From NCBI GenBank assembly GCA_044892525.1, contig CM097886.1, positions 92,752,001 to 92,816,000 on the forward strand: 64,000 nucleotides of DNA, in the 5' to 3' direction. The translations under genes were made by a program, and so were the position numbers. Shown here one piece after another: positions 1-63,986 of this stretch. How positions within the stretch are numbered: position 1 is the first letter of the stretch; every line of letters starts with the position of its first letter. This stretch comes from Schmidtea polychroa. Taxonomy: Eukaryota. The notes under the pieces were generated by a model. It did no database searches. It had not been told where the DNA came from and saw only the letters and a list, made by a program, of their open reading frames with translations.

Positions 1-2772
1 TTGGGAACAGCAGGAAGAATTTACGAACCAAACTCATTGCTACCTTTGTAAAAAGATTATCAATATACCTGTTCGAGATCATGATCATTTTACTGGTCAA
101 TATCTCGGAGCAGCGTGTCAAGATTGTAATTTGGCTAGAAGAATCAATCCGTCTTTACCTGTTGTATTTCATAATCTTCGTGGATATGACATTCATCATA
201 TATTAAAATATGCAATTGGAAAATTCTCCGATTGGAATTTAATTGTTATTCCTCAATCAACAGAAAAGTTTCTCACACTTACAGCGACATCGAAAGGCAG
301 AAGAATTAGATTCATTGATTCTTTACAATTTTTAAATAGCAGCTTGGCAAATTTATCAAAAAACTTGCCACGTCTTCCACTTACTTCAAAGATTTTCAAT
401 TCGCATCTAATAACTGGTAAAGGCATATTTCCTTATGATATTGCTACGTCAATGGATGTTTTACAGTCAATAACAGAATTACCATCGATTTGGGAGGGAG
501 TTAGTCAAGAAGATTATATACATGCAAATCAAATCTGGCGACAATACAACTGTGAGACACTGCTAGATTACATGCTCGTATATTTCAAGTTGGATGTTTC
601 TCTGTTGGCCGATGTTTTTGAAGCTTTCAGAGAAAAAACATTTGACGAAGATGGACTTGAGGCTCTATCGTTTGTTTCCATACCCGGATTAAGTTGGGCA
701 TCAGCTATTAAACAGTTACCTGAACCGGTAGAACTTATTCAAGATCCAGAGCTTTACCGTTTATTTGAAGCTGGTATTCGTGGTGGAATGACATTTATCA
801 ACAAACATCATGTTGAAGCTGATGAATCAACACAAATGTCATACCTAGATGTTAATAATTTATATGGATGGGCGCTGTCGCAAAAACTTCCTGTTGGTGA
901 ATTTAGATGGATAAATGATCAGACTGAAATGAATGGTATTGTTGAAAGATGTGCAAATGGGGATGAGTTTGATGGAGATCGTGGATATGTTCTAGAGGTT
1001 GACATCGTCATTCCTGATAGTATACAAGATAAGCTAGATGATTTACCTATAGCTCCTGAGCTTTGTTATCCACCTGGTAGTAAAGTTGAAAAGCTGTTGT
1101 TAACTCATGAGCCTAAGAAAAACTATGTAGTTAATGGTAGAGTTTTGACTGAATGGTTGAGTTATGGCGCAAAAGTCACAAAAGTTAATCGTGCTGTAGA
1201 ATTCAAGCAAGTAGCTATTTTCAAAGGCTATATTGATTACAATACTCAAATGAGAGCAGCTAGTACAGATTCATTTCAGCGAGATTATTATAAGTTAAAG
1301 AACAACAGTTTATACGGTAAAACCGTGGAAAACCTTAAGAAACGTATAAATTTGAGATTATGCAGCAAAAGCAAAAGATTGATAACTTATTGTAGTAATC
1401 CTATGTTTCGTCGTAGCATCAAGATTGCGGATGATCTCATTGCTGTTATACTTGATAAGGAAATGGTGTGTTTAGATAGACCAATGTATATTGGACAAAC
1501 CGTACTTGATTTATCTAAACTTCGCATGTACCAGTTTCAATATAAAGAACTACAGAGTTACAGAGAAGAATTCAATTGTCAAATTAATATCGTAGCCGGT
1601 GACACAGATTCCTTCTTTTTAGAGTGTAAAAATGTTGATTTACGCTTACAACTGTATCCAAAAATGATTGCCGATGGGCTCTTAGATACTTCAAATTATC
1701 CAGTGACTGATCCATTGTTCTCAGATAAAATTTGTTCGGTAATCGGGAAATTCAAGGATAAGAATAAAGGAAATCAATATAAAGAATGGGTGTTTCTTCG
1801 ACCCAACTGCTACTCACTCCAAGGCGATAAAAACACTCTAAAAGCCAAAGGAATAAGACTTACAAACTCTAATCTTACACATGAAGCCTATAAAAAAGTG
1901 TATACTGATGGTGGAACAGTGAGCATCCCACAAAAAAGAATAGGAAGTGCCAATCATCAGTTGTATACTTTCATGACCGAAAAACGAGCTCTCCAATGTT
2001 TGGATGATAAAAGGTATTGGTTCAATTCTAATAAAAGCTATGCCTACGGTCACTATAAGATTCGTCAAATGCATATTGCAACTGCTATGTCTAGAAATGA
2101 ATGCAAATCGAAACAAGCACTTTAACAATTAAATTTATGTGAATAATAAATATATATTGTGAATTATTTGACTTAGTTAATTAAAATGTGTTTTATCATT
2201 TAATTATTCATTTGTCCAATTAATTTAGATAATTAGTTTCAAGTAAGAAATATTATTTTCGTGTTTATTTTATTTATTTATTTATTTTTTCCGAAATATT
2301 AATATCCGGTTTATCTAAAATTAAATCATCGTTTTATTTTATAATAAATTAAATAATTTCTAATTAAAATTTTATTCGAATTGAATAATTACTAATTAAA
2401 ATTTTATTCAAATTGAAATATTATTGTTATAATTTACGTTCTTGTTAGAATATAATGTAAATGTAAAATTAGAAAAAATAAATAAATAAAATAAATAATA
2501 ATAATAATAATAATTAAATAACGTTAGTAATTAAAACAAAATATTAAAAAACAAATTAATTAATTAAATGTAATAAATTAAAAATTAACTAAAGTAAGTA
2601 ATTAAAAATATAACATCATAAAATAATTAATTAATAAAATTATAAAGAAAAAATTAAAAAGAAGTAATTAAATGAAATGTTAATTTAAAAAATAAATGAT
2701 TCGATTGGTCTATATTTGATCTTGATATTCCATGAGCTTGAAAGTGTCCTGGAGTCCTTACTATTCACTACT
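1..2772 (+). mobile_element. Right-hand portion of a Polinton/Maverick element with candidate terminus at 2772
   Basis: pPolB is followed by an AT-rich spacer and a block ending ...CTTACTATTCACTACT (2757-2772). On the minus strand this reads AGTAGTGAATAGTAAG, a Polinton-type AGTAGT terminus. The other TIR and the TSD partner lie outside the window. Confidence 0.6.
2..2125 (+). CDS. polB: Protein-primed family B DNA polymerase (Polinton/Maverick type), 5'-partial, with an EndoVII-like module upstream of ExoII
   Basis: The frame is open from base 2, before the tracked start at 131: WEQQEEFTNQTHCYLCKK...VRDHDHFTGQYLGAACQDCNL. Downstream motifs: ExoII HNLRGYD, KGIFPY, ExoIII region Y..LDVSLLADVFE, motif A YLDVNNLYG, motif B KLKNNSLYGKT, motif C GDTDS. 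Confidence 0.92.
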   Translation, partial: WEQQEEFTNQTHCYLCKKIINIPVRDHDHFTGQYLGAACQDCNLARRINPSLPVVFHNLRGYDIHHILKYAIGKFSDWNLIVIPQSTEKFLTLTATSKGRRIRFIDSLQFLNSSLANLSKNLPRLPLTSKIFNSHLITGKGIFPYDIATSMDVLQSITELPSIWEGVSQEDYIHANQIWRQYNCETLLDYMLVYFKLDVSLLADVFEAFREKTFDEDGLEALSFVSIPGLSWASAIKQLPEPVELIQDPELYRLFEAGIRGGMTFINKHHVEADESTQMSYLDVNNLYGWALSQKLPVGEFRWINDQTEMNGIVERCANGDEFDGDRGYVLEVDIVIPDSIQDKLDDLPIAPELCYPPGSKVEKLLLTHEPKKNYVVNGRVLTEWLSYGAKVTKVNRAVEFKQVAIFKGYIDYNTQMRAASTDSFQRDYYKLKNNSLYGKTVENLKKRINLRLCSKSKRLITYCSNPMFRRSIKIADDLIAVILDKEMVCLDRPMYIGQTVLDLSKLRMYQFQYKELQSYREEFNCQINIVAGDTDSFFLECKNVDLRLQLYPKMIADGLLDTSNYPVTDPLFSDKICSVIGKFKDKNKGNQYKEWVFLRPNCYSLQGDKNTLKAKGIRLTNSNLTHEAYKKVYTDGGTVSIPQKRIGSANHQLYTFMTEKRALQCLDDKRYWFNSNKSYAYGHYKIRQMHIATAMSRNECKSKQAL

Positions 2773-25900: not shown

Positions 25901-28900
25901 ATAATAATTAAAAACTTTTAATGTGTGAATCTTTATATGAACTGGGAAAGTAAATAATAAAATCCCTGGATATTTGGACAATAAATTGGAGAGAATTGGA
26001 TTTGATCTAGATATTAGAACCTGGTAAAAAAAGAAGTATAATATAAAATAAAATTGTAATCTGACTCCATTTGACCTTCATCTTAAAACAATAAGATCTA
26101 ACACAATTAAGTTTTATTTCCAATTCAGTAATCACAAATATTCAATCTTTCAATAATAATAGTTTCGTCAAACGCCTGATGTTCTAATCGAATCTGATCA
26201 ACACTAATTCCAAAACTCAGTACCTTAAAAAGTCTCTGATATTAACACAATTTGTCTTCGACCGGGAATGATAAATTAAACTAACTTTGTCTTTCCTTAT
26301 CTAGACAAGCTCGGGGATTTTGTTTTCCTATTAAAAAGATTTATGTTATCAATAGGATTTTAATCAAATAATTAGTTTGTATTTTTCTAATAACTCTTCT
26401 TAGAGACCCCCATCCATCAATTTATAATTATTTTATTCAAATTTATATCTCTATTCATACCTCTCCCTCTAACAAATATTTATTTTTCAATTATTATAAT
26501 TACATTTTTGAATTTGAATTTAATTTCTTGAATTATTTAATTATTTAATCCAACAAATAAATTTTAATTGATAATATGCATTTTTATTCCATTATTATTT
26601 GAAAATCGATTTTTCTTTATCGAAAGATGCATAATATATTCAATATGTATATTCTATATTTTAAATTTTCAAAAGAACTTCTAGCTATATTGGAGTAGAT
26701 GGATTGGGCACCGCTAGCACAGTATCCCCCCTCCCCCCGGTCGTCATATTTTTCAAAAATATGCTAAGTCTAAAAGTACATTTTTTTAAACAAAGACATA
26801 AGACTCATCAAGGTCATTGAATCTTTGTTTGAATGACCTTGAAAATTTTTTTGACCTTGATGAGTCATACGACCTTGAAAATGACCTTGATGAGTCATGG
26901 TCTTTGTTTCAATGACCTTGAGAAATTTGATGAGTCATACTGTGAGTCATGGTCTTTGTTTCAATGACCTTGATGAGTCATATGTCTTTGTTTTAAAAAA
27001 TGTACTTTTAGACTTAGCATATTTTTGAAAAATATGACGACGGGGGGGAGGGGGGTACTGTGCTAGCGGTGCCCAATCCATCTACTTATTGGCAATAAAT
27101 AAATTTCAATTTAAAAATATAATTAATAAAAATTCGAATAATGAGATAAGAAAAAGAATTTGATCCAAATATCGAAATTGTGTTAATAAAATCAAAGGAC
27201 CGGTAAAATAGAATGTCTCATTGTAATTCGCAGCATAGAAACTTTATTAACAAAATATGAAACTTGATAATATTTGTAACATGGTTAATTTTAGCGTAGA
27301 TGTTACATTGTACTTCACTCTGCAATTATTGAATTTTGCACTTAGTCCAAAGATTATTTCAACAATATTACTGTTCCTGGATGGATTATAATGGATTATA
27401 TTGGATTACTAATTTTTTTTATTTTTTCGTAGTCTTAATTAAAAATTAACAATAAAATAAAATTTGCATATTTTGAAATATTTTTTCTTATTTCAACTTT
27501 TTCACTATTGATTCAAAATAGTATTGATTTTTCCCAGTGAATTATTTAATGAAATTTTTTTTGTATAAGCACCATTAACATAAAACACTTTTGTCAAATA
27601 TTTTTTATACATATGGTCGTTAATTAATTTGCAATCATTATGGGATCTTTTGAATGGCCAATACCGGTTCTTTCCCATTATGTTTTGGTTGAACTATACC
27701 AATGCTATTCAGAATCAATTGTTTCGTAAGGTTTCATAAACAAACTCTTTCATCCACTAGGAAGCATTTATTAACACTTTAACAGATGATTTATTAACGA
27801 GAGCGTCATATGTTATATAAAATCACTACTTTTGTTCACATGTAATTATACATTCCGATAATGTTTACTACACGACAACAATGACTTAGAAATTGACAGT
27901 ATTTGCATTTTTTAATTTCATGTTATCGCGTGTATGACCAGTTTATCCATCTATCGAATCTTTGCAATTTTGTCAAAATGTCCTATTATTTGCTCTATCT
28001 GTCTCGAGATTCGGAAAATCTTAAAAAAAGAGTTTACTAAGTCAAAATTATAGACTGAAAGAAATTTTGAATTGACAGAATGTTTGGTCGTTCTGATGTC
28101 AAAATGTAACGCAAAATTTAATTTAAGGGTAAAGCAAAATTTGTTTAAAAATTTTCTTGGAATTTCAAACAATTTCTAGTAACAGCAAATAAATGGATGA
28201 ATTTTTTCCTTCAGTTATTCCTAAGCCTACTCATTGTATCTTTCATGGGTTTCTTTAGGCAGATCTCGAGTGATTGTACAACACTGATTCAAATTGCAGA
28301 AATTACGTCAATATGTGTTTCACATTTTTCTTGAGTAACCACAAGTAGGTAGAAGTGTGGAGCCGAGAACAAAGACATGAATAATCATTTTACGGAACAA
28401 AAACATATGACACTTGGGGAGGGGGTATCTCTTATTTATTTTTTGATTTTTTTAAAAAATATTTTGGATTATAAAAATAATCCATATCAAGGAACTGAAT
28501 ATATCAAGTCAATTATTATTATTATTATTATTATTCAGATGTAAATATCACAACTAAAGTATCTCATAAATAACAAGAAAATTATAAAAGTTAAACATCA
28601 AATCATCATTGATATGTTTTCAATTCTATAGTATTTATTTATTTTATTGATTCCCACTTTTATTTCTTTACCTAACCTTATATTACATCATTTTACCTAC
28701 GAAAGTGAATCATATTTGCAAAAATATTGAATAAAATTTGACAAAAGAATATTCATTCAGTCTCAATTCTATGATTTCAGTAAAGGAATGAAATACATTT
28801 GAGGTGTGGAGTCTCACAGTTATTCTCTTGACATTAAATGTAAAAAGGATGTATTTGTTTAAGTAGAAATATTCCAAACCAGCTTTTCATATTTCTCATT

Positions 28901-31900
28901 AACATATGTCGAATCTAACTAATTATTCTTTTAATTCTCATTTCCTCCATTATTTCTTCCATTTTTGGTAAATCAGAAATCGAAACCTCAAATTTATTTC
29001 CTTTAACTTCACTACTTATTGATTGAAAGTAATATTGATGAATCGAATTCAAGGTGGATTCAAGCTCTAGCAAATGATTGTCTGTGTCTTGAATTCTTTC
29101 TAAAGCTTCTTGAGTCAATCTTACTCTTGCATTAGAAAATCTTAAATTTCTATCATTGGTAATATCTATTGCTTCCTTTAATACATTATAAGGTGTAACC
29201 TGCACGACTTTCTGAGAGTGCTCCCATATATCAACGCGGTCGTCAATAACGGCAACAATGTTGTCATTTTTTGCGAATTGATTTGCTAATGTCCGAAGTT
29301 TATAAAATTGGTTTACTATATTCCTTGCCGTTGTAATCCTATTTCCGAAATATAACATTTCAGGGTCAATTAATTCCATAGCTATGTTCACGTAATTACT
29401 GTTTCCTAAACTCATAGCATGGAGTTCAAACTTGTTAGAAATTCTTTCTAGAAAATCGTCTAAATTCGGTCTTAACTTTACAAAACAGCAAGGGTATTCT
29501 GAGCTTTTCAATTCAACTGATTCAATATCCTTAAGTGTCCTATGATTGATCTGATCCTTCACGAAAACTGTATGAAGCAATGTTTCATCAATGTCACAGA
29601 CTAAAACTAGTTTTCCGGCTTTCAATAAATTTCTACTGTATTCTTGAGAATATTTCATGAAAATAATGTTTTAACAGAGTCTTTAATAAAACAAATAAAT
29701 AAAAAGTTTGTAATATTAAAAGCGGAAAATATTAGATAAATTAGATAAATAATTACATAAATTAATGCTAGCCTTGTTTCATAGAAAGTGAGCCATTATA
29801 TCATGTTTAATATATTATTTTATCCTTATAAAATTGTATGTAAAAATGAAATTATTTCAATATATAAGAAAATAATATTATTTTCGAAATTTCTTAATTT
29901 ATATATTATAAAATAAAGATTCAATTTGTACTTTCACAATTTTAAATAATTAACATGATCTTATTTACCAAATAATAACCAACATCTTTTAAAACAAAGA
30001 ATACGAATGTTTTAATTTAATAAGTATTTGGCTGTTTCCATAGCTCCTATGGAACTCTATATTAACGAAAAAAGTAATAGCTTCATTCTTCACCTTTATA
30101 TGTCTATAGTTTTCAATGTATAAGATTACGCTAGTTAAGTGTCAGTCACTTTGATTGGAAACTTTTTCCTTTCAATTCAACACAATTATTATCTCATTTC
30201 GGCATTTCTTAAAACAGCAAGAGTCACTTAATTTGTTTTAAACCGTCATTTTCGTTATTGTTTTAATAACACAAGGTTGTTTATTTAATTCATAACATAT
30301 TTTCCAACGGAAAGAGTATTACAATTTTATATTAATAAGATTTTTTATATATTATTATTGTATTTACATTAATTACTTTGTTATATTATTATACACTATT
30401 TATTCATTGTTTATTATCCTGTGTATTAAAACTAATTTCGGGATTTATGTTTTTACTATATTTTATTCATAAAAATTAATAATATTTAAACATGAAATAT
30501 TACAAATTTAAATATATTTTTGGAGTAGTAAAGATTGTTTTCAGTTACTTCTTTAATATGTTTTTCATTATCAGTAATATTTCTAGATTTCAGTTTACAC
30601 TACATATTTTTTATTCTTTAAATCTCTTCATATTATGAAATAATCGTATTTATCAGATATTTATCAGATTATCATATTATTTCAGATTTAAGTTTATTTC
30701 GACAAAAATATTATATAATATATCAATCCGAATTGCACATTTAAATACAACATTTATTAAATCATTTTACCAAATAACAATACTGGACTATATTGAAACA
30801 TTATTCTGTAATAGAAACAATGTTTTCATTAAAGTTAGTAGTTTATTCATGTTGAATTTTCAAGATAATTTGATAGTATGTATCTCGCCGAAGGGACAAC
30901 AATGTCATTGGAATCATTGTCTAGTTAATAATATTTTTCGTATTATTAGTTACTTTTAATAAAATATACTGTTGAAATAAATTTATTTTTTCATCACAAT
31001 GCAGTTTGATCTACAATGTTTCGGGTTTTACAGTCAGGAGCAAAAACGTACAAATTCTTCCCAGTTCTTATTTGATATCTAATCATTGTATTATACTGTA
31101 TAATGTGTAGATAATATACTTTATTTAATATTTTTAAGTATATATAATTATAGTATTTTAATATTGTAATAATTATTGCATACTTCTTAGATCGATCTAA
31201 TATTTATATATTTTATTAGCAGAAATTCTATATTCGAATATTTAAATTGTTTGAAACAATATTTATTAATAATTGGGGATATTGATATTTATACCGTTAA
31301 TTACATTGATATTTAGATAATTAACTAATAAAAAACGGTAAAAAATAAATATTTATTAATGAATTTTTTACCAAAAAATAGGGAGTAGAGCACCCCGTTC
31401 ACTCCCGATTGTCAAACCAACCCAGTGTTGACCTGTCCATGGACCCATGGGAGCCTCGTGGAAAATTTAGTGGTGTTAGCTGTTACAGGGTGTTATAAGT
31501 ATTTAGGGTTATATTCTAAACTTGACTTTATATAAATAATTATCTTTGTTAGTCGAATGCTTGGTAAGTTTTGTAGAAGATATGTAAGAGCCCAGTAGAG
31601 TCTCCTTTAAAGCTTGTATTGGGACTGTTGGGATGTTTGTGTGTAATGCGTGTGTATATATTAATCACAATTAAAGTAAATGATTATTTTCAACCAAAAC
31701 AAAATATAGAACCAATTAACTTAATTAACTTTTATTACAAAAAAATACTAATAAATCGACCTTAAAATTTAATTGGCTCCAATAGATTGAAATAGAACTT
31801 GGAATTGTACGGCTTTAATATATTGAAATAGAACTTGGAATTGTACGACTCTAGTTTTGTGTTGCTAAGTTTCTTAAATTTTTTGTTTAATTTCGTTTTT

Positions 31901-34900
31901 GATTTTTTTATTGATTTTTTTTTTCAAATTTAATTTTTATAATTATAATAATAATAACATCAATAAAATAAATAAGACAAAATAGCGAACCGGCAGACAA
32001 ACAAACATTCTTCTTTATATAGATAGATTAAAACATTTAATCAGAAGAAACTTGACAGATAATTTGATGAAATTTAAGAAATACAACCTTAGAAAATAAT
32101 AATTATTAAAAATATAATATTACTTATATACAAGAAACAAAAAGTATCAACAAATCTTAAACTTATATTTGAATAAGAAAATACCACCCGGTTTCATAAT
32201 ATATGAGACATTTGAATCTTTATTTTATAATATATAAATTAAGAAATTTCGAAAATAATATTATTTTCTTATATATTGAAATAATTTCATTTTTACATAC
32301 AATTTTATAAGGATAAAATAATATATTAAACATGATATAATGGCTCACTTTCTATGAAACAAGGCTAGCATTAATTTATGTAATTATTTATCTAATTTAT
32401 CTAATATTTTCCGCTTTTAATATTACAAACTTTTTATTTATTTGTTTTATTAAAGACTCTGTTAAAACATTATTTTCATGAAATATTCTCAAGAATACAG
32501 TAGAAATTTATTGAAAGCCGGAAAACTAGTTTTAGTCTGTGACATTGATGAAACATTGCTTCATACAGTTTTCGTGAAGGATCAGATCAACCATAGGACG
32601 CTTAAGGATATTGAATCAGTTGAATTGAAAAGTTCAGAATACCCTTGCTGTTTTGTAAAGTTAAGACCGAATTTAGACGATTTTCTAGAAAGAATTTCTG
32701 ACAAGTTTGAACTCCATGCTATGAGTTTAGGAAACAGTAATTACGTGAACATAGCTATGGAATTAATTGACCCTGAAATGTTATATTTCGGAAATAGGAT
32801 TACAACGGCAAGGAATATAGTAAACCAATTTTATAAACTTCGGACATTAGCAAATCAATTCGCAAAAAATGACAACATTGTTGCCGTTATTGACGACCGC
32901 GTTGATATATGGGAGCACTCTCAGAAAGTCGTGCAGGTTACACCTTATAATGTATTAAAGGAAGCAATAGATATTACCAATGATAGAAATTTAAGATTTT
33001 CTAATGCAAGAGTAAGATTGACTCAAGAAGCTTTAGAAAGAATTCAAGACACAGACAATCATTTGCTAGAGCTTGAATCCACCTTGAATTCGATTCATCA
33101 ATATTACTTTCAATCAATAAGTAGTGAAGTTAAAGGAAATAATTTTGAGGTTTCGATTTCTGATTTACCAAAAATGGAAGAAATAATGGAGGAAATGAGA
33201 ATTAAAAGAATAATTAGTTAGATTCGACATATGTTAATGAGAAATATGAAAAGCTGGTTTGGAATATTTCTACTTAAACAAATACATCCTTTTTACATTT
33301 AATGTCAAGAGAATAACTGTGAGACTCCACACCTCAAATGTATTTCATTCCTTTACTGAAATCATAGAATTGAGACTGAATGAATATTTTTTTGTCAAAT
33401 TTTATTCAATGTTTTTGCAAATATGATTCACTTTCGTAGGTAAAATGATGTAATATAAGGTTAGGTAAAGAAATAAAAGTGGGAATCAATAAAATAAATA
33501 AATACTATAGAATTGAAAACATATCAATGATGATTTGATGTTTAACTTTTATAATTTTCTTGTTATTTATGAGATACTTTAGTTGTGATATTTACATCTG
33601 AATAATAAATAATAATAATAATAATAATAATAATTGACTTGATATAATCAGTTCCTTGATAAGGATTATTTTTATAATCCAAAATATTTTCATTTTATTC
33701 AATATATACTTTGCATTAAAAGGCTTGTGTTACCATTTAATTGTTTGACATTTAATTTAATTCATGCTGCTACCAAGAAATGATCACTTTATATAATAAT
33801 AATAATATTAATTCGTGATTTTGGGCATAACAGTGTCCTTGTTATTTTAATATTTAGGTTACGATGATTCAAAAATTTTAAAAATAAAACAGATTAAATT
33901 CATAAAATAACAACATGATTGGATTTTTTTAAATTTCTCCAATACACAATAGACTCATAAAATAACACAAAGTGAACTTTTAAATAATCATAGGCTCATA
34001 TGACACTTTATCCAATCCATGTTGTTGTTTTATGAATTTAATCTGTCTAAAATACCGATGTTAAGGATATGCAAAGGTTATGCAGGAAGTATAAAAATTA
34101 TACTAAGCATTCACGATAGGTAAATATTAGAAAAGTATCTCAAGATAGAAATATTACTTTCCTAATTGATAAACTACTTTCCGTATAGTTCAATATGATT
34201 TTAGTAATATTGAAATGAATATTGGATGTTCAACCAAGTGATGCTGGGATAATACATTTTTTGTGCAGTTACAAAAGCTAGCATCTAAAATTTCTAATAG
34301 TTTATGCCAATTTCGACAATTAATAGCTAAGTTCCTCTATGAATAATGGAATAATTTCTGGAAATTTAAATCTTGAAATTGATATAAATATCTGAAAAGG
34401 AATTCTGGCACATTTTCAGTTATAATATCAATATAATAGTTTCTTATTTGACAATTAGGGTGCTATTGATATTATTAAAAAATGAAAAACAATTGCAGAT
34501 ACACTATTTTTCATTCTCTATTCTATAAATTGAACACTTAGCCATGTTTAATTAATTTCAAAACTGATTTCTAAATATTTTAAAGACTTTCAAATCAACT
34601 TCTGTAGTGCTTTTATCCCATGGGGACAGCTCTTTTCTTCAGTATGTTATATTCTTGTAACATCATTTTCAGCTCAGTACAATCGCATGGTTAATCATAA
34701 TTACAGCACTACTCCATCACATTGACAATATCTTTTCCTTTTTTGACATCTCTGTGCCGACCGAATTTTGAATTCATATCTCAAACACCATCTTAGGTAC
34801 ATTAAATTAATTGGCAGTTTTACGCAATGATATTTCACTTGAAACAATTTTAACCTATGTTCCTTGTCATCTTTTCATACAATCATTAGTGAAACAAATA

Positions 34901-58811: not shown

Positions 58812-60593
58812 TCAACTATTACTGCAAATTGTGACAGAACGAGGTGAAAAATGTTTCAAAATTTCATTTGACATCGTTACATCATTCCCAGTAATTTTTA
58901 ATAGTTTAATCATTGCCTCAGAATTGTTAGTGATATGCATAGATGAACTGTGATCATTTGGATTTCGTAGATTTAGATAATGAGATGAAAACGGTTCATA
59001 ATTTGTAGAATTGTCATTTGGGCAATTATTCTGATTTGAAGTTGAAACTGATTGGATTTCTGAAGTAATCAAGGAAGAATCGAAATTTGTCTCGTTTGTT
59101 TTAGATGTAGATTCGATATTTTCATTTTCATAAGAATTAATCCAACAACCAGAATCATTTGCTGATACCCAATCTAATTGTACATAATCGACTTTGTTTT
59201 TATTTTCATTGAACCGAGGGCATTTTTCGTTTTGTAAAATGCTTGTTTGTCTTGGAGGCACAGCAGGATAATCACGAGACTTTCTTTCTGTATTTTCATT
59301 TTTAGAGTCGTAGGGAATCAATGATATTCTTTCTATCCCTTTGATTTCTAACCGACAAAATGGACAACTTTGGCAACGAACCGATTTTTGCCATCTGCTC
59401 AGACACAAATTACACAATAAATGTCCGCATGGCTCTAATTTAATGTTTTTATTATTCTGAGAACATATTTTACATAATTCAAAAGAAGAATCGATTAGAC
59501 TATAAGCTTCATGTTCTTCGAGGGATACTGTAATGTTCTGGAGTGGAGAACTTACCAGATTATGGAGAAATGAGTTATCGTAGATTTTTCCATTTGGATA
59601 TTTATATATGCCAGCTTGTTCTCCTTCATAAAGAGCTATTGCTAGAGATTTATTGTGAACTATTGTTTGGTAGATTTTACCACTTAAATCAATATACCCA
59701 ATGGCCCATTGACCTGGCTTTGTACAACTGAAACGAAATACATACGAACCAGGACCAGGATAGCATCTAAAGGATTTTAACAATTGCACAACTTGTTCAT
59801 ATGTAATGTAAGACATGCATCCTGGATGTTCTAAAACGATTACTTTCCATGATTCAAGAATATTATTCCACGGCTGAAATAATCTAACGAATACATCAAA
59901 ATCAAAAATTGACACAAATCCATTCCCAGTGACATTAATTGTTTTACGCAAAGCCGCAATTTGAGAAACTTCAGAAATATAATTTATCTTTGAGAAAAAG
60001 TGAAAAAAGTCATTCCATTTCACCACAGTTGTGAGACGACCAAATTGAGAATTCCACCAATCTGCAGCATCAGACTTTGTGATTCGAAATGTTTCAGGAG
60101 CATAACAACTATTTGGAAATAATGCGACAACTGCATGAAATAAATGTGATAATAAAATTGATATGTTTACTAATTTCTGTCTAGGCTCTGAAAATTCATC
60201 AAAAGAGAAATTAACATGCCGAATAATTCGCAAAATCTCTTTGCATTGTTTAATAAGAGTCCATATAGATACACGAAAAAAAATTATTTTACTGAGCTCA
60301 TTCAGTTTGTTTTCATAACACTTCAAAATATCCATAATTTTGTGGCTAAAATTTCTCAAAATACAAGGTAAATAAGGCGGATTGGTTTTAAAATTAATAT
60401 CAGAATTACCAATGCACTTCTGGCACTTTTCGATTAAAGATAATACATAATGAAAATCCTTGGAAATCAAAATGTTTTGAGAGAACCAATTAGTTGACCT
60501 AGATTTTATTTCTTTAAAAATCATAAAACTATCTGTTTCTTCTTTGCCATCCTTTGGCTTATTCTTATGTCGATTGAACATGCGACATAACAT
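58812..60593 (-). CDS. CBL: Cbl-family RING E3 ubiquitin ligase (TKB, linker, RING, Pro motif, UBA-like end), intronless, 593 aa
   Basis: FRITKSDAADWW, FDFDVFVRLFQPW, HPG...TYEQV, GSYVFRFSCTKPGQWAIGY, C3HC4 RING CKICSQNNKNIKLEPCGHLLC..CL..WQ...CPFCR, PAVPPR, and a C-terminal KLLKITGNDVTMSNEILKHF. Confidence 0.95.
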   Translation of the reverse strand: MLCRMFNRHKNKPKDGKEETDSFMIFKEIKSRSTNWFSQNILISKDFHYVLSLIEKCQKCIGNSDINFKTNPPYLPCILRNFSHKIMDILKCYENKLNELSKIIFFRVSIWTLIKQCKEILRIIRHVNFSFDEFSEPRQKLVNISILLSHLFHAVVALFPNSCYAPETFRITKSDAADWWNSQFGRLTTVVKWNDFFHFFSKINYISEVSQIAALRKTINVTGNGFVSIFDFDVFVRLFQPWNNILESWKVIVLEHPGCMSYITYEQVVQLLKSFRCYPGPGSYVFRFSCTKPGQWAIGYIDLSGKIYQTIVHNKSLAIALYEGEQAGIYKYPNGKIYDNSFLHNLVSSPLQNITVSLEEHEAYSLIDSSFELCKICSQNNKNIKLEPCGHLLCNLCLSRWQKSVRCQSCPFCRLEIKGIERISLIPYDSKNENTERKSRDYPAVPPRQTSILQNEKCPRFNENKNKVDYVQLDWVSANDSGCWINSYENENIESTSKTNETNFDSSLITSEIQSVSTSNQNNCPNDNSTNYEPFSSHYLNLRNPNDHSSSMHITNNSEAMIKLLKITGNDVTMSNEILKHFSPRSVTICSNS

Positions 60594-60773
60594 ATTTAAA
60601 TTTTCATAAAAAATAATAAGTATACACTACAACATAATTTATCAAATTAGATTATTTAAACAAAAATAATTAATAAAATATTGTGTAAATTCAAAATGTC
60701 GGAAATAGAAATAATAACTTATAATAAGTCATAAAAATAACTATAAATCAATTATTATTCAACACAAAAATTT

Positions 60774-61508
60774 TCACAAGTCTTCGTCCTCATCAGGCAA
60801 TGGAGCAGCTGCAGCCTGTTGGATTTCAGCTTCACATTGAGCTACCCAGTTTGGATCCATCGGAACTTCAGGGGGAGCTAATGCAGGCATTTCAGCAAAT
60901 TCTAGATTTGGATCTCCAACCAATTTGCGAGCAATCCACAAAAATGGTTTTTCGAAGTTATAATTAGACTTAGCAGATACATCGTAATACTAAATTACTT
61001 ATGTTATAGTATCTATTTAATTTATATTTTACTTGTAAATTCTTTTTTCTATGGAAGGTAATTGTCTTAGCCTTAACCTTTCTATCTTTAATATCTACTT
61101 TATTGCCTACAAGGACAATAGGGATGTTTTCACATACCCTAACTAAATCTCGGTGCCAGTTGGGTACATTTTTATATGTAATACGACTAGTTACATCAAA
61201 CATGATTATAGCACATTGGCCTTGAATATAGTAGCCATCTCTAAGACCTCCAAACTTTTCCTGGCCGGCAGTATCCCAAACATTGAAACGGATTTTACCA
61301 CGAGTTGTATTGAACTCCAAAGGATGAACTTCCACTCCCAATGTTGCTATTAAATTCATATTATCATATTATTAGATTTTAAAATATACTTACCGACATA
61401 TTTCTTTTCAAACTCTCCTGTAACGTGTCTTTTTACAAAAGTAGTTTTGCCTGTTCCCCCGTCACCAACTAAAACTAGTTTGAACTGAGCTACGACATCA
61501 CCGGACAT
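60774..61508 (-). CDS. RAN: GTP-binding nuclear protein Ran; exons 61508-61394, 61346-61033, 60989-60774 (214 aa)
   Basis: [53 protein letters not shown] and acidic tail PDEDEDL; GT-AG introns of 47 and 43 nt. Confidence 0.98.
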
Positions 61509-62646: not shown

Positions 62647-62865
62647 TGTTAGGGATATTTAAATAATTAATTTATAAATAAAATATATATTATATTATAA
62701 GAAAAAGTATAAAAGCTGGCACGCATAATTATCATTATTATTTAATTAATTAATTCGCCATTTAAATCGGGTGTTTTAATAATACCAGATTTGGGCAATA
62801 ATTTGTATTTTGCATTTTGTATTAAAAATAAATATTTCTAGATTATTAATTGGTTATTATTAACA
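62647..62865 (+). mobile_element. 5' LTR (219 bp) of a young Ty3/Gypsy element
   Basis: TGTTA...TAACA termini, TATAAAAG near 62709, AATAAA near 62828, directly followed by a PBS. Confidence 0.75.
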
Positions 62866-63986
62866 TGGCGACCCTGGCAATGATCAATAAAATGATCCCG
62901 GATATTTACGATGGCAGCGTCGATGTAGACGTTTTTATTGGAGAATGCAAGAGGTATTTCCAATTATGTGGACTAGAACAATCCAGCCAAAGTATGATGA
63001 TCAAATGTTTAATCGCAAGAGAGTTGTTGCCAATTTATGAAGCAATAGAAGAAAATGAAATTTTTTTTGAAGACAGATTGAAAAAGGCTTTCGAGAAACC
63101 AACGACGTTGATAGGGGATTTTCTAACCCTTTGCAATTATGAAAAGAACGATGATACTGCTCCAGTATATTTCGAAAAAATAGAAAAGATGGTTGACCAA
63201 GTTCTGAAGCACAAATGGGACAAGAAAGAATTAATGTCATATTTTTTGGTTCATTGTATCAAAGACAAGGATACACAGAAAGAAATAAAGATGAGAGATG
63301 CGATGAGCGTCGACGAAATAAAAGGAGTGATAAAGAAGGTCGATGATATAAACATTGAAGTATCCGGAATTTCAGTTTTGAATAGAAGGAAGGAAACGTT
63401 TGCGAGTATTGTCAAGACGAGACAAGGATTTGCCGATAGACAGAACCAAAGCAGAACTTTTACAAATTTACAACGAAGTGAACACAGATATGATTCAACA
63501 TCGAGGATGAAAGCCGATAATTTCCAGAACAGATTCCAACAAAGAGAAATGCCGGTTAGAAGCAGACCAGTTATTACATGTTGGAATTGTCAGGAGGTGG
63601 GTCATATGAGTCGAGAATGTCGGAAACCAAGGGTTCAGAAATGCTTCCAATATGGAAAAGAAGGGCACCAATCCAGAGAGTGCAATCAGAGATTACAGAA
63701 TGCAGAGATGAGATGTTTTGCGTGTAAAGATATTGGACACAACAGAAGAGAATGCCCATCAATATCGTGCTCAGGATGCGGTAGAAGAGGCCACCTACGA
63801 TTTCAATGCTGGAATCAGACAGACAGAAGAAGATACGCAGACGAGCGGGGACCACCGAGACGGACACAGGTAGCCGCGTTTCAGACTGATCAAGCCGAGA
63901 ACGACGAAAAGATTTCATGCCAAGACGAAGACTACCCAAACCAAGAAGCTCCATCGTTGGGCGAGATGATCGGAGCAATAAATTAA
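62865..63986 (+). CDS. gag: Ty3/Gypsy gag with four CCHC zinc knuckles (second has C>Y)
   Basis: IPDIYDGSVDVDVFI capsid-like start; CWNCQEVGHMSREC, CFQYGKEGHQSREC, CFACKDIGHNRREC, CSGCGRRGHLRFQC. Confidence 0.9.
   Translation: MATLAMINKMIPDIYDGSVDVDVFIGECKRYFQLCGLEQSSQSMMIKCLIARELLPIYEAIEENEIFFEDRLKKAFEKPTTLIGDFLTLCNYEKNDDTAPVYFEKIEKMVDQVLKHKWDKKELMSYFLVHCIKDKDTQKEIKMRDAMSVDEIKGVIKKVDDINIEVSGISVLNRRKETFASIVKTRQGFADRQNQSRTFTNLQRSEHRYDSTSRMKADNFQNRFQQREMPVRSRPVITCWNCQEVGHMSRECRKPRVQKCFQYGKEGHQSRECNQRLQNAEMRCFACKDIGHNRRECPSISCSGCGRRGHLRFQCWNQTDRRRYADERGPPRRTQVAAFQTDQAENDEKISCQDEDYPNQEAPSLGEMIGAIN
62866..62879 (+). promoter_or_regulatory. Primer binding site, tRNA-Arg-like
   Basis: TGGCGACCCTGGCA immediately follows the LTR CA. 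It is complementary to a tRNA 3' end ...GGGTCGCCA; the Arg assignment is inferred. Confidence 0.65.
63935..63976 (+). promoter_or_regulatory. Putative -1 programmed ribosomal frameshift signal (gag-pol)
   Basis: In-frame slippery heptamer C CCA AAC, 6-nt spacer, then hairpin GCTCC-ATCGTT-gggcga-GATGAT-c-GGAGC. The -1 frame stays open past the gag stop to the window end. Confidence 0.7.

Follow-up and report, generated by a model that had tools for sequence, protein, structure and literature searches.

A 393-bp single-copy insertion in Schmidtea polychroa derived from an abundant Polinton family

The 393-bp element at 26694-27086 of the window (the 64,000-nucleotide stretch of the Schmidtea polychroa genome analysed here) derives from a family of large elements that is now demonstrated to be a Polinton family. 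It is unusually small, correctly assigned and real, yet it is a singleton of putative mobility, a relic with no coding capacity and no amplification. The reading that we favour, to which we give a probability of about one half, is that it represents a single-copy piece of this abundant family, likely a larger integrated copy that lost its interior at this site. Because no second copy was found, a one-off leftover is likely rather than a spreading miniature parasite.

A re-check of the sequence left the borders of the element where they had been placed before (Table 1), and the AGTAG termini, near-perfect TIRs of ca. 128 bp, exact TATTGG duplication and lack of an ORF that the earlier note had described were all confirmed on re-measurement. 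The two arms align with 96.9% identity over 128 bp (3 mismatches and 1 gap), and the chance of a 6-bp match such as that of TATTGG is ca. 8e-4 at the local base composition. A single strand of the element is predicted to form a very stable hairpin (fold z = -24.9 against 100 shuffles). Its longest stop-free frame has 54 aa and its longest Met-started frame 44 aa, and neither pPolB nor integrase coding was found in it, so that it is not an autonomous Polinton. The window contains no further copy. Regarding the core of ca. 140 bp made of short repeats, the 138 bp between the arms do consist of such repeats, but they are not a separate module, being instead the inner part of a parental TIR.

Table 1. 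Positions in the window of the 393-bp element, its parts and flanks, and of the second Polinton end
Feature	Position	Strand	Remarks
Right end of a Polinton of the second family	1..2772	+	pPolB frame at 2-2125, terminus at 2772
Left TSD, TATTGG	26688..26693	.	Single copy in the empty allele
Outer 128 bp of Polinton TIR	26694..26821	+	94-97% identity to many large-element ends; made up of the terminus, one 16-bp unit, a poly-C tract, a small hairpin and the first array unit
Lone 16-bp subterminal unit	26706..26721	+	Likewise single in the opposite arm; two in most family ends
Blunt junction of the two parental pieces	26821..26822	.	Unique; without microhomology or filler
"Core", the inner subterminal array	26822..26959	-	Parental TIR positions 129-265 from the end
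Outer 127 bp of the right TIR piece	26960..27086	-	Complementary to the left arm
Right TSD, TATTGG	27087..27092	.	Read in the sequence

The first 19 bases of the terminus are found 855 times in forward and 879 times in reverse orientation (1,734 in the genome), a count that corresponds to ca. 860 elements, and the full-size copies of this parent family are 93-99% alike. In a DNA search with the 393-bp element, in which 40 out of 2,216 candidates were scored, only the element itself matched over all 393 bp, the rest of the 40 matches corresponding to one end. Four paired ends delimited elements of 11.8, 16.0, 17.7 and 19.4 kb; the inverted ends measured at least 452-783 bp in all four, and an exact 6-bp duplication was found in three, the fourth having five of the six letters. 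That the 6-bp TSD is a family trait, as had been proposed, is borne out by the first 33 Mb of C1, where 25 of 30 adjacent end pairs have an exact 6-bp TSD and none has a longer one; the five pairs without TSD, probably ends of different elements, were kept in this count, two of the 25 positive pairs are one duplicated locus, and three more pairs of less than 60 kb lie outside it.

Gene content was analysed in 14 whole elements, a non-random set consisting of the four from the first search and ten picked to span sizes. One copy (E1) has matches to an adenovirus-type protease (Peptidase_C5) and an A32-type packaging ATPase (Pox_A32) above the curated Pfam cut-offs, and an rve integrase (E=1.6e-5) and a chromodomain were matched in the same copy, both under the Pfam cut-off; overall, the rve integrase was matched in 12 of the 14 elements and pPolB in 11. 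The 903-aa frame of E1 has no direct match to DNA_pol_B_2 and shares 56% identity (685 aa aligned) with the PolB of the window, which matches DNA_pol_B_2 at 7e-31. A 426-aa frame resembles double jelly-roll (DJR) capsid clusters (atlas 0.97, with recognition under the atlas threshold) and has no sequence match in Pfam or PDB. At least four of six core genes are present in 12 of the 14 elements, the remaining ones being a gene-less element and a palindrome with pPolB only, and core genes are missing or truncated in five of this non-random sample (E2, E4, L106, L110 and L114). The Polinton end signature recognized previously is upheld, since the same terminus bounds 10-21-kb elements with pPolB, integrase, ATPase and protease, and the 393-bp element has, as a non-autonomous derivative does, the termini and TSD typical of a family that coexists with it in this genome and carries genes. 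A large partner with the same TIR and a capsid gene had also been foreseen; such partners carry pPolB and integrase, the capsid being represented by a capsid-like frame at sub-threshold level only.

These features agree with published descriptions of Polintons, in the portions of the sources cited here (PMC4196379, PMC8097293, PMC6431247, PMC3014272), which give sizes of 15-20 kb, TIRs of 100-1,000 bp and a 6-bp TSD (PMC4196379), or 6-bp TSDs and AGT/AG end motifs (PMC8097293). The AGTAGA terminus found here is one letter off the Polinton (AGT)2 motif, and it is not (AG)3. Several other traits of the parent family were observed. A short TBP-like protein (L031, 3239-3703; Pfam TBP, 1e-15) is encoded in 12 of the 14 whole elements, and in one copy (L031, 778-2001) the integrase frame contains a long expansion of a simple repeat, which interrupts it while keeping the reading frame and translates as poly-Ile. 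Subterminal units of 16 bp number 1-4, often with a different count at either end of one element, and L135 and L172, as compared with L171, have an identical one-sided TIR variant. The sequences suggest that homogenisation of the TIRs does not accompany every round of replication.

The PolB present in the same window, to which the earlier note had drawn attention, was rejected as the partner: its terminus differs, the proteins are 56% identical, the nucleotide matches are all short, and it is part of a second family. Positions 1-2772 of the window, together with L038/L039 (G000:C2, about 92,741,690-92,754,772), make up a 13,084-bp giant palindrome of this second family that begins upstream of the window, with 5.96-kb arms of 98.4% identity, an 870-aa pPolB frame in each arm and a TAATTA duplication; no other core genes were seen in this palindrome. 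An incomplete third copy, whose left flank is the same, is located 9 kb upstream. Elsewhere in the window, an inverted, near-identical duplicate (28915-29670, minus strand, and 32466-33221, plus strand) with a 251-aa NIF/FCP1-like phosphatase frame lies ca. 1.8 kb from the 393-bp insertion; a single-frame Cbl-like E3 ligase ORF of 604 aa (58812-60626, minus strand), a Ras-family (Ran-like) GTPase exon (60970-61368, minus strand) and a gag-like frame with a zinc-knuckle (62850-63986, plus strand) were also observed.

A comparison with the family ends resolved the 393-bp element into TIR bases 1-128 joined to TIR bases 1-265 in opposite orientation, the inner repeat array running for 450-1000 bp in the TIRs of full-size copies. 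Among the 72 ends of the same terminal subtype, natural ends read ACAA past the first breakpoint (56 of 58 scored) and CCAT past the second (38 of 41 scored); the element has no letter in common with either continuation, and the junction is therefore blunt. It lies at the edge of a 7-nt loop, in a small local hairpin, and a 22-mer spanning it has one genomic occurrence at up to one mismatch. Because both parental TIRs are alike over the kept length, the sequence alone does not separate an origin of the pieces from two ends from an origin from one.

Further peculiarities set the element apart from the ends with which it was aligned. Its core is without two 12-bp units, each of which is present at its site in 48 of 65 subtype ends, and both a 52-mer spanning the two losses and a 33-mer with private variants of the element are single-copy in the genome. 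Ends with a single 16-bp unit number 157, as against 1,734 termini in the genome; within the subtype the unit is single in 10 of 65 ends, a count that includes a few mis-scored ones, and 16 of 25 end pairs have 2/2 or 2/3 units. No match to the array of the element was found among 87 ends compared, the nearest differing by 10 events, while the median difference between neighbours within the subtype is 7. Its arms differ by 4 events, as do, at the median, the two ends of larger elements (range 0-9; 23 of 25 pairs scored). L135 and L172 were tried as a parent lineage on seven alignments and discarded, since the gap count is similar but the deletion differs; a search of 25.8 kb for the partner end of L135 did not locate it. 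The TIR array (e.g. 26822-26990 of the window) is rich in TGACTCA and CAAGGTCA, with 21 of each in 1 kb of full TIR and 5 and 6, respectively, in the 393-bp element; we take the former to be a candidate AP-1 site and the latter a candidate nuclear-receptor half-site.

Contigs assembled from six of seven sequencing runs listed (X1-X6) were compared at the locus, X4 and X6 at the junction only and X2 and X5 at the wide stretch only. The filtered contig records leave the right flank uncovered in X3 and X5 and the junction uncovered in X3 and X6, gaps that were given no weight as evidence. In the X1 and X2 contigs, exactly 34 letters separate 26693 from 27127, and they are identical to letters 27093-27126, so that these runs have an empty site with one TATTGG; the X1 flanks differ from the window at 27 of 1,596 sites (ca. 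1.7%, as in X2). In X3 and X5 the left flank is identical to the window and the contigs reach 26-28 bp into the element, and an X4 contig spans the internal junction (26785-26861), matching the window at all 77 positions, 37 on one side and 40 on the other. The empty site in X1 and X2 together with the X4 junction contig indicate that the insertion is real and polymorphic within the species, insertion polymorphism being one of the checks proposed in the earlier note. That the 393 bp result from a full-size element collapsed in assembly, or that the ends are those of a non-Polinton transposon, is very improbable. A collapse would fit with the first 16 letters of the X4 bridging contig, which are foreign to the assembly, and with the lack of a bridging contig among the filtered records listed for X3 and X6; however, the same X4 contig crosses the junction without differences, and its loose letters match the context of locus L104, which has the same 29-mer, so that they can be taken as a graph chimera. 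As for a non-Polinton transposon, it is opposed by the fact that the same ends bound elements with Polinton core genes.

The terminal subtype of the element was fully listed and comprises 72 exact ends, that is, 25 pairs and 22 unpaired ends. The pairs are the element itself and 24 elements of 10-37 kb, and the five whole elements of this subtype that were examined all have 4-6 of the 6 core genes. Two of the unpaired ends lie in large elements already examined, and the other 20 were checked over 6 kb: core genes are present within this distance at 18 of them, and one has the opposite terminus, delimiting a gene-less element of 2,409 bp that is flanked by a 6-bp duplication of its own. No second sub-kb element appears among the 72 ends. 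On a broader scale, the 313 distinct exact ends listed rendered 109 pairs under 60 kb, of which one is below 1 kb (the element), one is of 3 kb, three are of 5-10 kb, 87 of 10-21 kb and 17 larger; there is thus no sub-3-kb pair among the 108 others, for 313 ends listed as against 1,734 exact termini.

The element is as short and gene-less as a MITE and has TIRs and a TSD, but MITEs occur as many uniform, dispersed copies with distinct TSDs and its junction is present once; the junction, the 52-mer and the 33-mer have no second copy in the genome. It is not a MITE family, and the many ca. 0.4-kb copies with distinct TSDs expected in the earlier note did not materialize, neither at the junction nor among the 72 subtype ends and the 108 pairs. 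The same note had contemplated a singleton without a partner; a singleton it is, but a partner family of ca. 860 elements is present. A rare but real class of sub-kb Polinton MITEs, independently formed or amplified and missed by sampling, is improbable. The 313 distinct ends out of 1,734 exact termini and the DNA search, in which 40 of 2,216 candidates were scored, leave some room for it, and 0 of 108 other pairs would still allow up to ca. 3% of sub-kb elements (ca. 25 copies); the unique junction and the fully listed subtype without a second sub-kb element speak against such a class, and so does X1, a run with the empty site, which has no bridging contig among those listed. A few unrelated sub-kb derivatives may be found in the four fifths of the ends outside the list.

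In the favoured explanation, loss of the interior in place, the retroviral-type integrase of the family would have produced the TATTGG duplication; a later break, or an excision whose gap was abortively repaired from both sides, would have left only the outer ends, which homology-free end joining would have sealed, and copying slippage would have reduced four short tandem duplications (two of 16 bp and two of 12 bp) to one unit each. Abortive gap repair is a source of Ds and P deletion derivatives. Both pieces match the ends of gene-bearing elements, shortened copies are common in the family (5 of the 14, non-randomly chosen), and the junction is without microhomology; the join resembles end joining, the arms differ as two ordinary ends do, and nothing has been amplified. 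As a counterpoint, no longer (full-size) allele of the site was seen among the contigs of X1, X2, X3 and X5, the first two being empty and the last two entering the element by only 26-28 bp. The in-place route may moreover assume a gap-leaving excision, which is not established for Polintons. A single 16-bp unit at both ends, found in three other such adjacent pairs among the first 100 of the 157 ends, is also a counterpoint, and these matched units would be better accounted for by copy-back from one end.

It can also be the case, as a tentative alternative, that the element was formed outside the chromosome in the course of protein-primed replication, by copy-back from one end or by deletion of a free linear genome, and then integrated once, unchanged, by the integrase of the family acting in trans. 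A minority single-unit form common to both ends and a small hairpin closed by the junction would be expected from such an event, and fold-back products with intact duplications recur in the genome (2.4, 3.2, 8.4, 10.1, 11.9 and 13.1 kb); in insects, polintons without polB are reported, in the part of the source considered, to be still mobile (10.1101/2025.02.07.637071). Moreover, the gene-less relatives with exact 6-bp duplications make a direct insertion of short forms plausible. However, no microhomology or self-priming complementarity is present at the junction, the arms differ from each other by 4 events over 128 bp, at one site they have both variants that segregate in the family (66 versus 6 ends), and an element that replicated and integrated efficiently should have been amplified, whereas a single copy was found. 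Arm identity was discarded as a test of copy-back, since the palindromic relatives L092/L093 and L060/L061 also differ by 4 events and the difference is thus not discriminating. The more specific proposal, that the Polinton's protein-primed polymerase produced the element as a copy-back mini-genome which the integrase then inserted in trans without further change, is doubtful. If it were true, the element would be the smallest Polinton-ended mobile unit known to us and the low end of a series of fold-back genomes (0.4, 2.4, 3.2, 8.4, 11.9 and 13.1 kb), and ca. 128 bp per end would contain both the origin and the integrase site; for extrachromosomal formation in general, ends of at most 128 bp would suffice for integration.

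The fold-back and gene-less relatives deserve a description of their own. An 11.9-kb palindrome of the family of the element (L112+L113, G000:C1:24,976,661-24,988,590) has pPolB in both arms, which are 98.7% identical, a 6-bp duplication, and the same architecture as the 13,084-bp palindrome. Three gene-less elements of 3.2, 8.4 and 10.1 kb (L181, C1:36.04 Mb; L183, C3:9.96 Mb; L108, C1:7.60 Mb) have the termini of the family and distinct 6-bp duplications, the first two being palindromic and the third half-palindromic, and they have common interior DNA that is absent from three coding copies compared. The 2,409-bp gene-less element at L143 92-2500 (G000:C3, about 144.003 Mb) has a 6-bp duplication, a 376-bp internal fold-back and two ends that differ in subtype. 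At L182 (G000:C1:144.601 Mb), a pair of family termini lies 385 bp apart, both pointing the same way, as in a short tandem or a nested end. Because the gene-less elements have 6-bp duplications of their own, gene-less forms probably move in this genome; their mobility does not demonstrate that of the 393-bp form.

With regard to known systems, the element is the same as a Polinton/Maverick in terminus, TIR sequence and 6-bp duplication and differs by its size and lack of genes. Ds-del and the ca. 400-bp Ds1 are internal-deletion derivatives of maize. Like these, like deleted P elements and like MITEs, the 393-bp element has kept its ends, lost its interior and preserved an intact TSD at a MITE-like size, and by analogy it can be regarded as the Polinton counterpart of an internal-deletion derivative of a TIR transposon; the parent here encodes pPolB and integrase rather than a cut-and-paste transposase, and MITEs, unlike this singleton, amplify to many uniform copies. 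Short palindromic genomes are reportedly made by phi29 polymerase in a mini-genome study; these are likewise short and hairpin-forming with origins at both ends, whereas the element is known from integrated sequence alone. Non-autonomous Polinton families of kb size are said to have been described by Kapitonov and Jurka in 2006. According to the portions of the sources cited, Polinton remnants of four sizes as well as TIR-only insertions are found in C. elegans (PMC11414722), and transpovirons are linear elements with TIRs that travel together with a virus (PMC5499653). Transpovirons are of ca. 7 kb and have genes, unlike the gene-less element, which is seen as an integrated sequence, and in contrast with defective Polintons and remnants both outer ends and the duplication are here intact within less than 0.4 kb. 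In the literature, the founding paper and repeat libraries aside, we came upon no Polinton of MITE size that retains its two ends and a TSD; repeat libraries may contain short non-autonomous Polintons.

To our knowledge, the replication and integration of Polintons have not been worked out experimentally, nor have their cis requirements been defined, and a proven mobile form of 0.4 kb, if such it were, would sharply narrow these requirements. The 393-bp element, its mobility being putative, does not yet provide the minimal cis requirements that the earlier note had in view. In practical terms, the 393-bp insertion is of value as a polymorphic marker. Being a singleton of putative mobility, it mainly documents the decay of an abundant and recently spread family, and the series of deleted and palindromic derivatives present in this genome is more interesting than the single 393-bp element.
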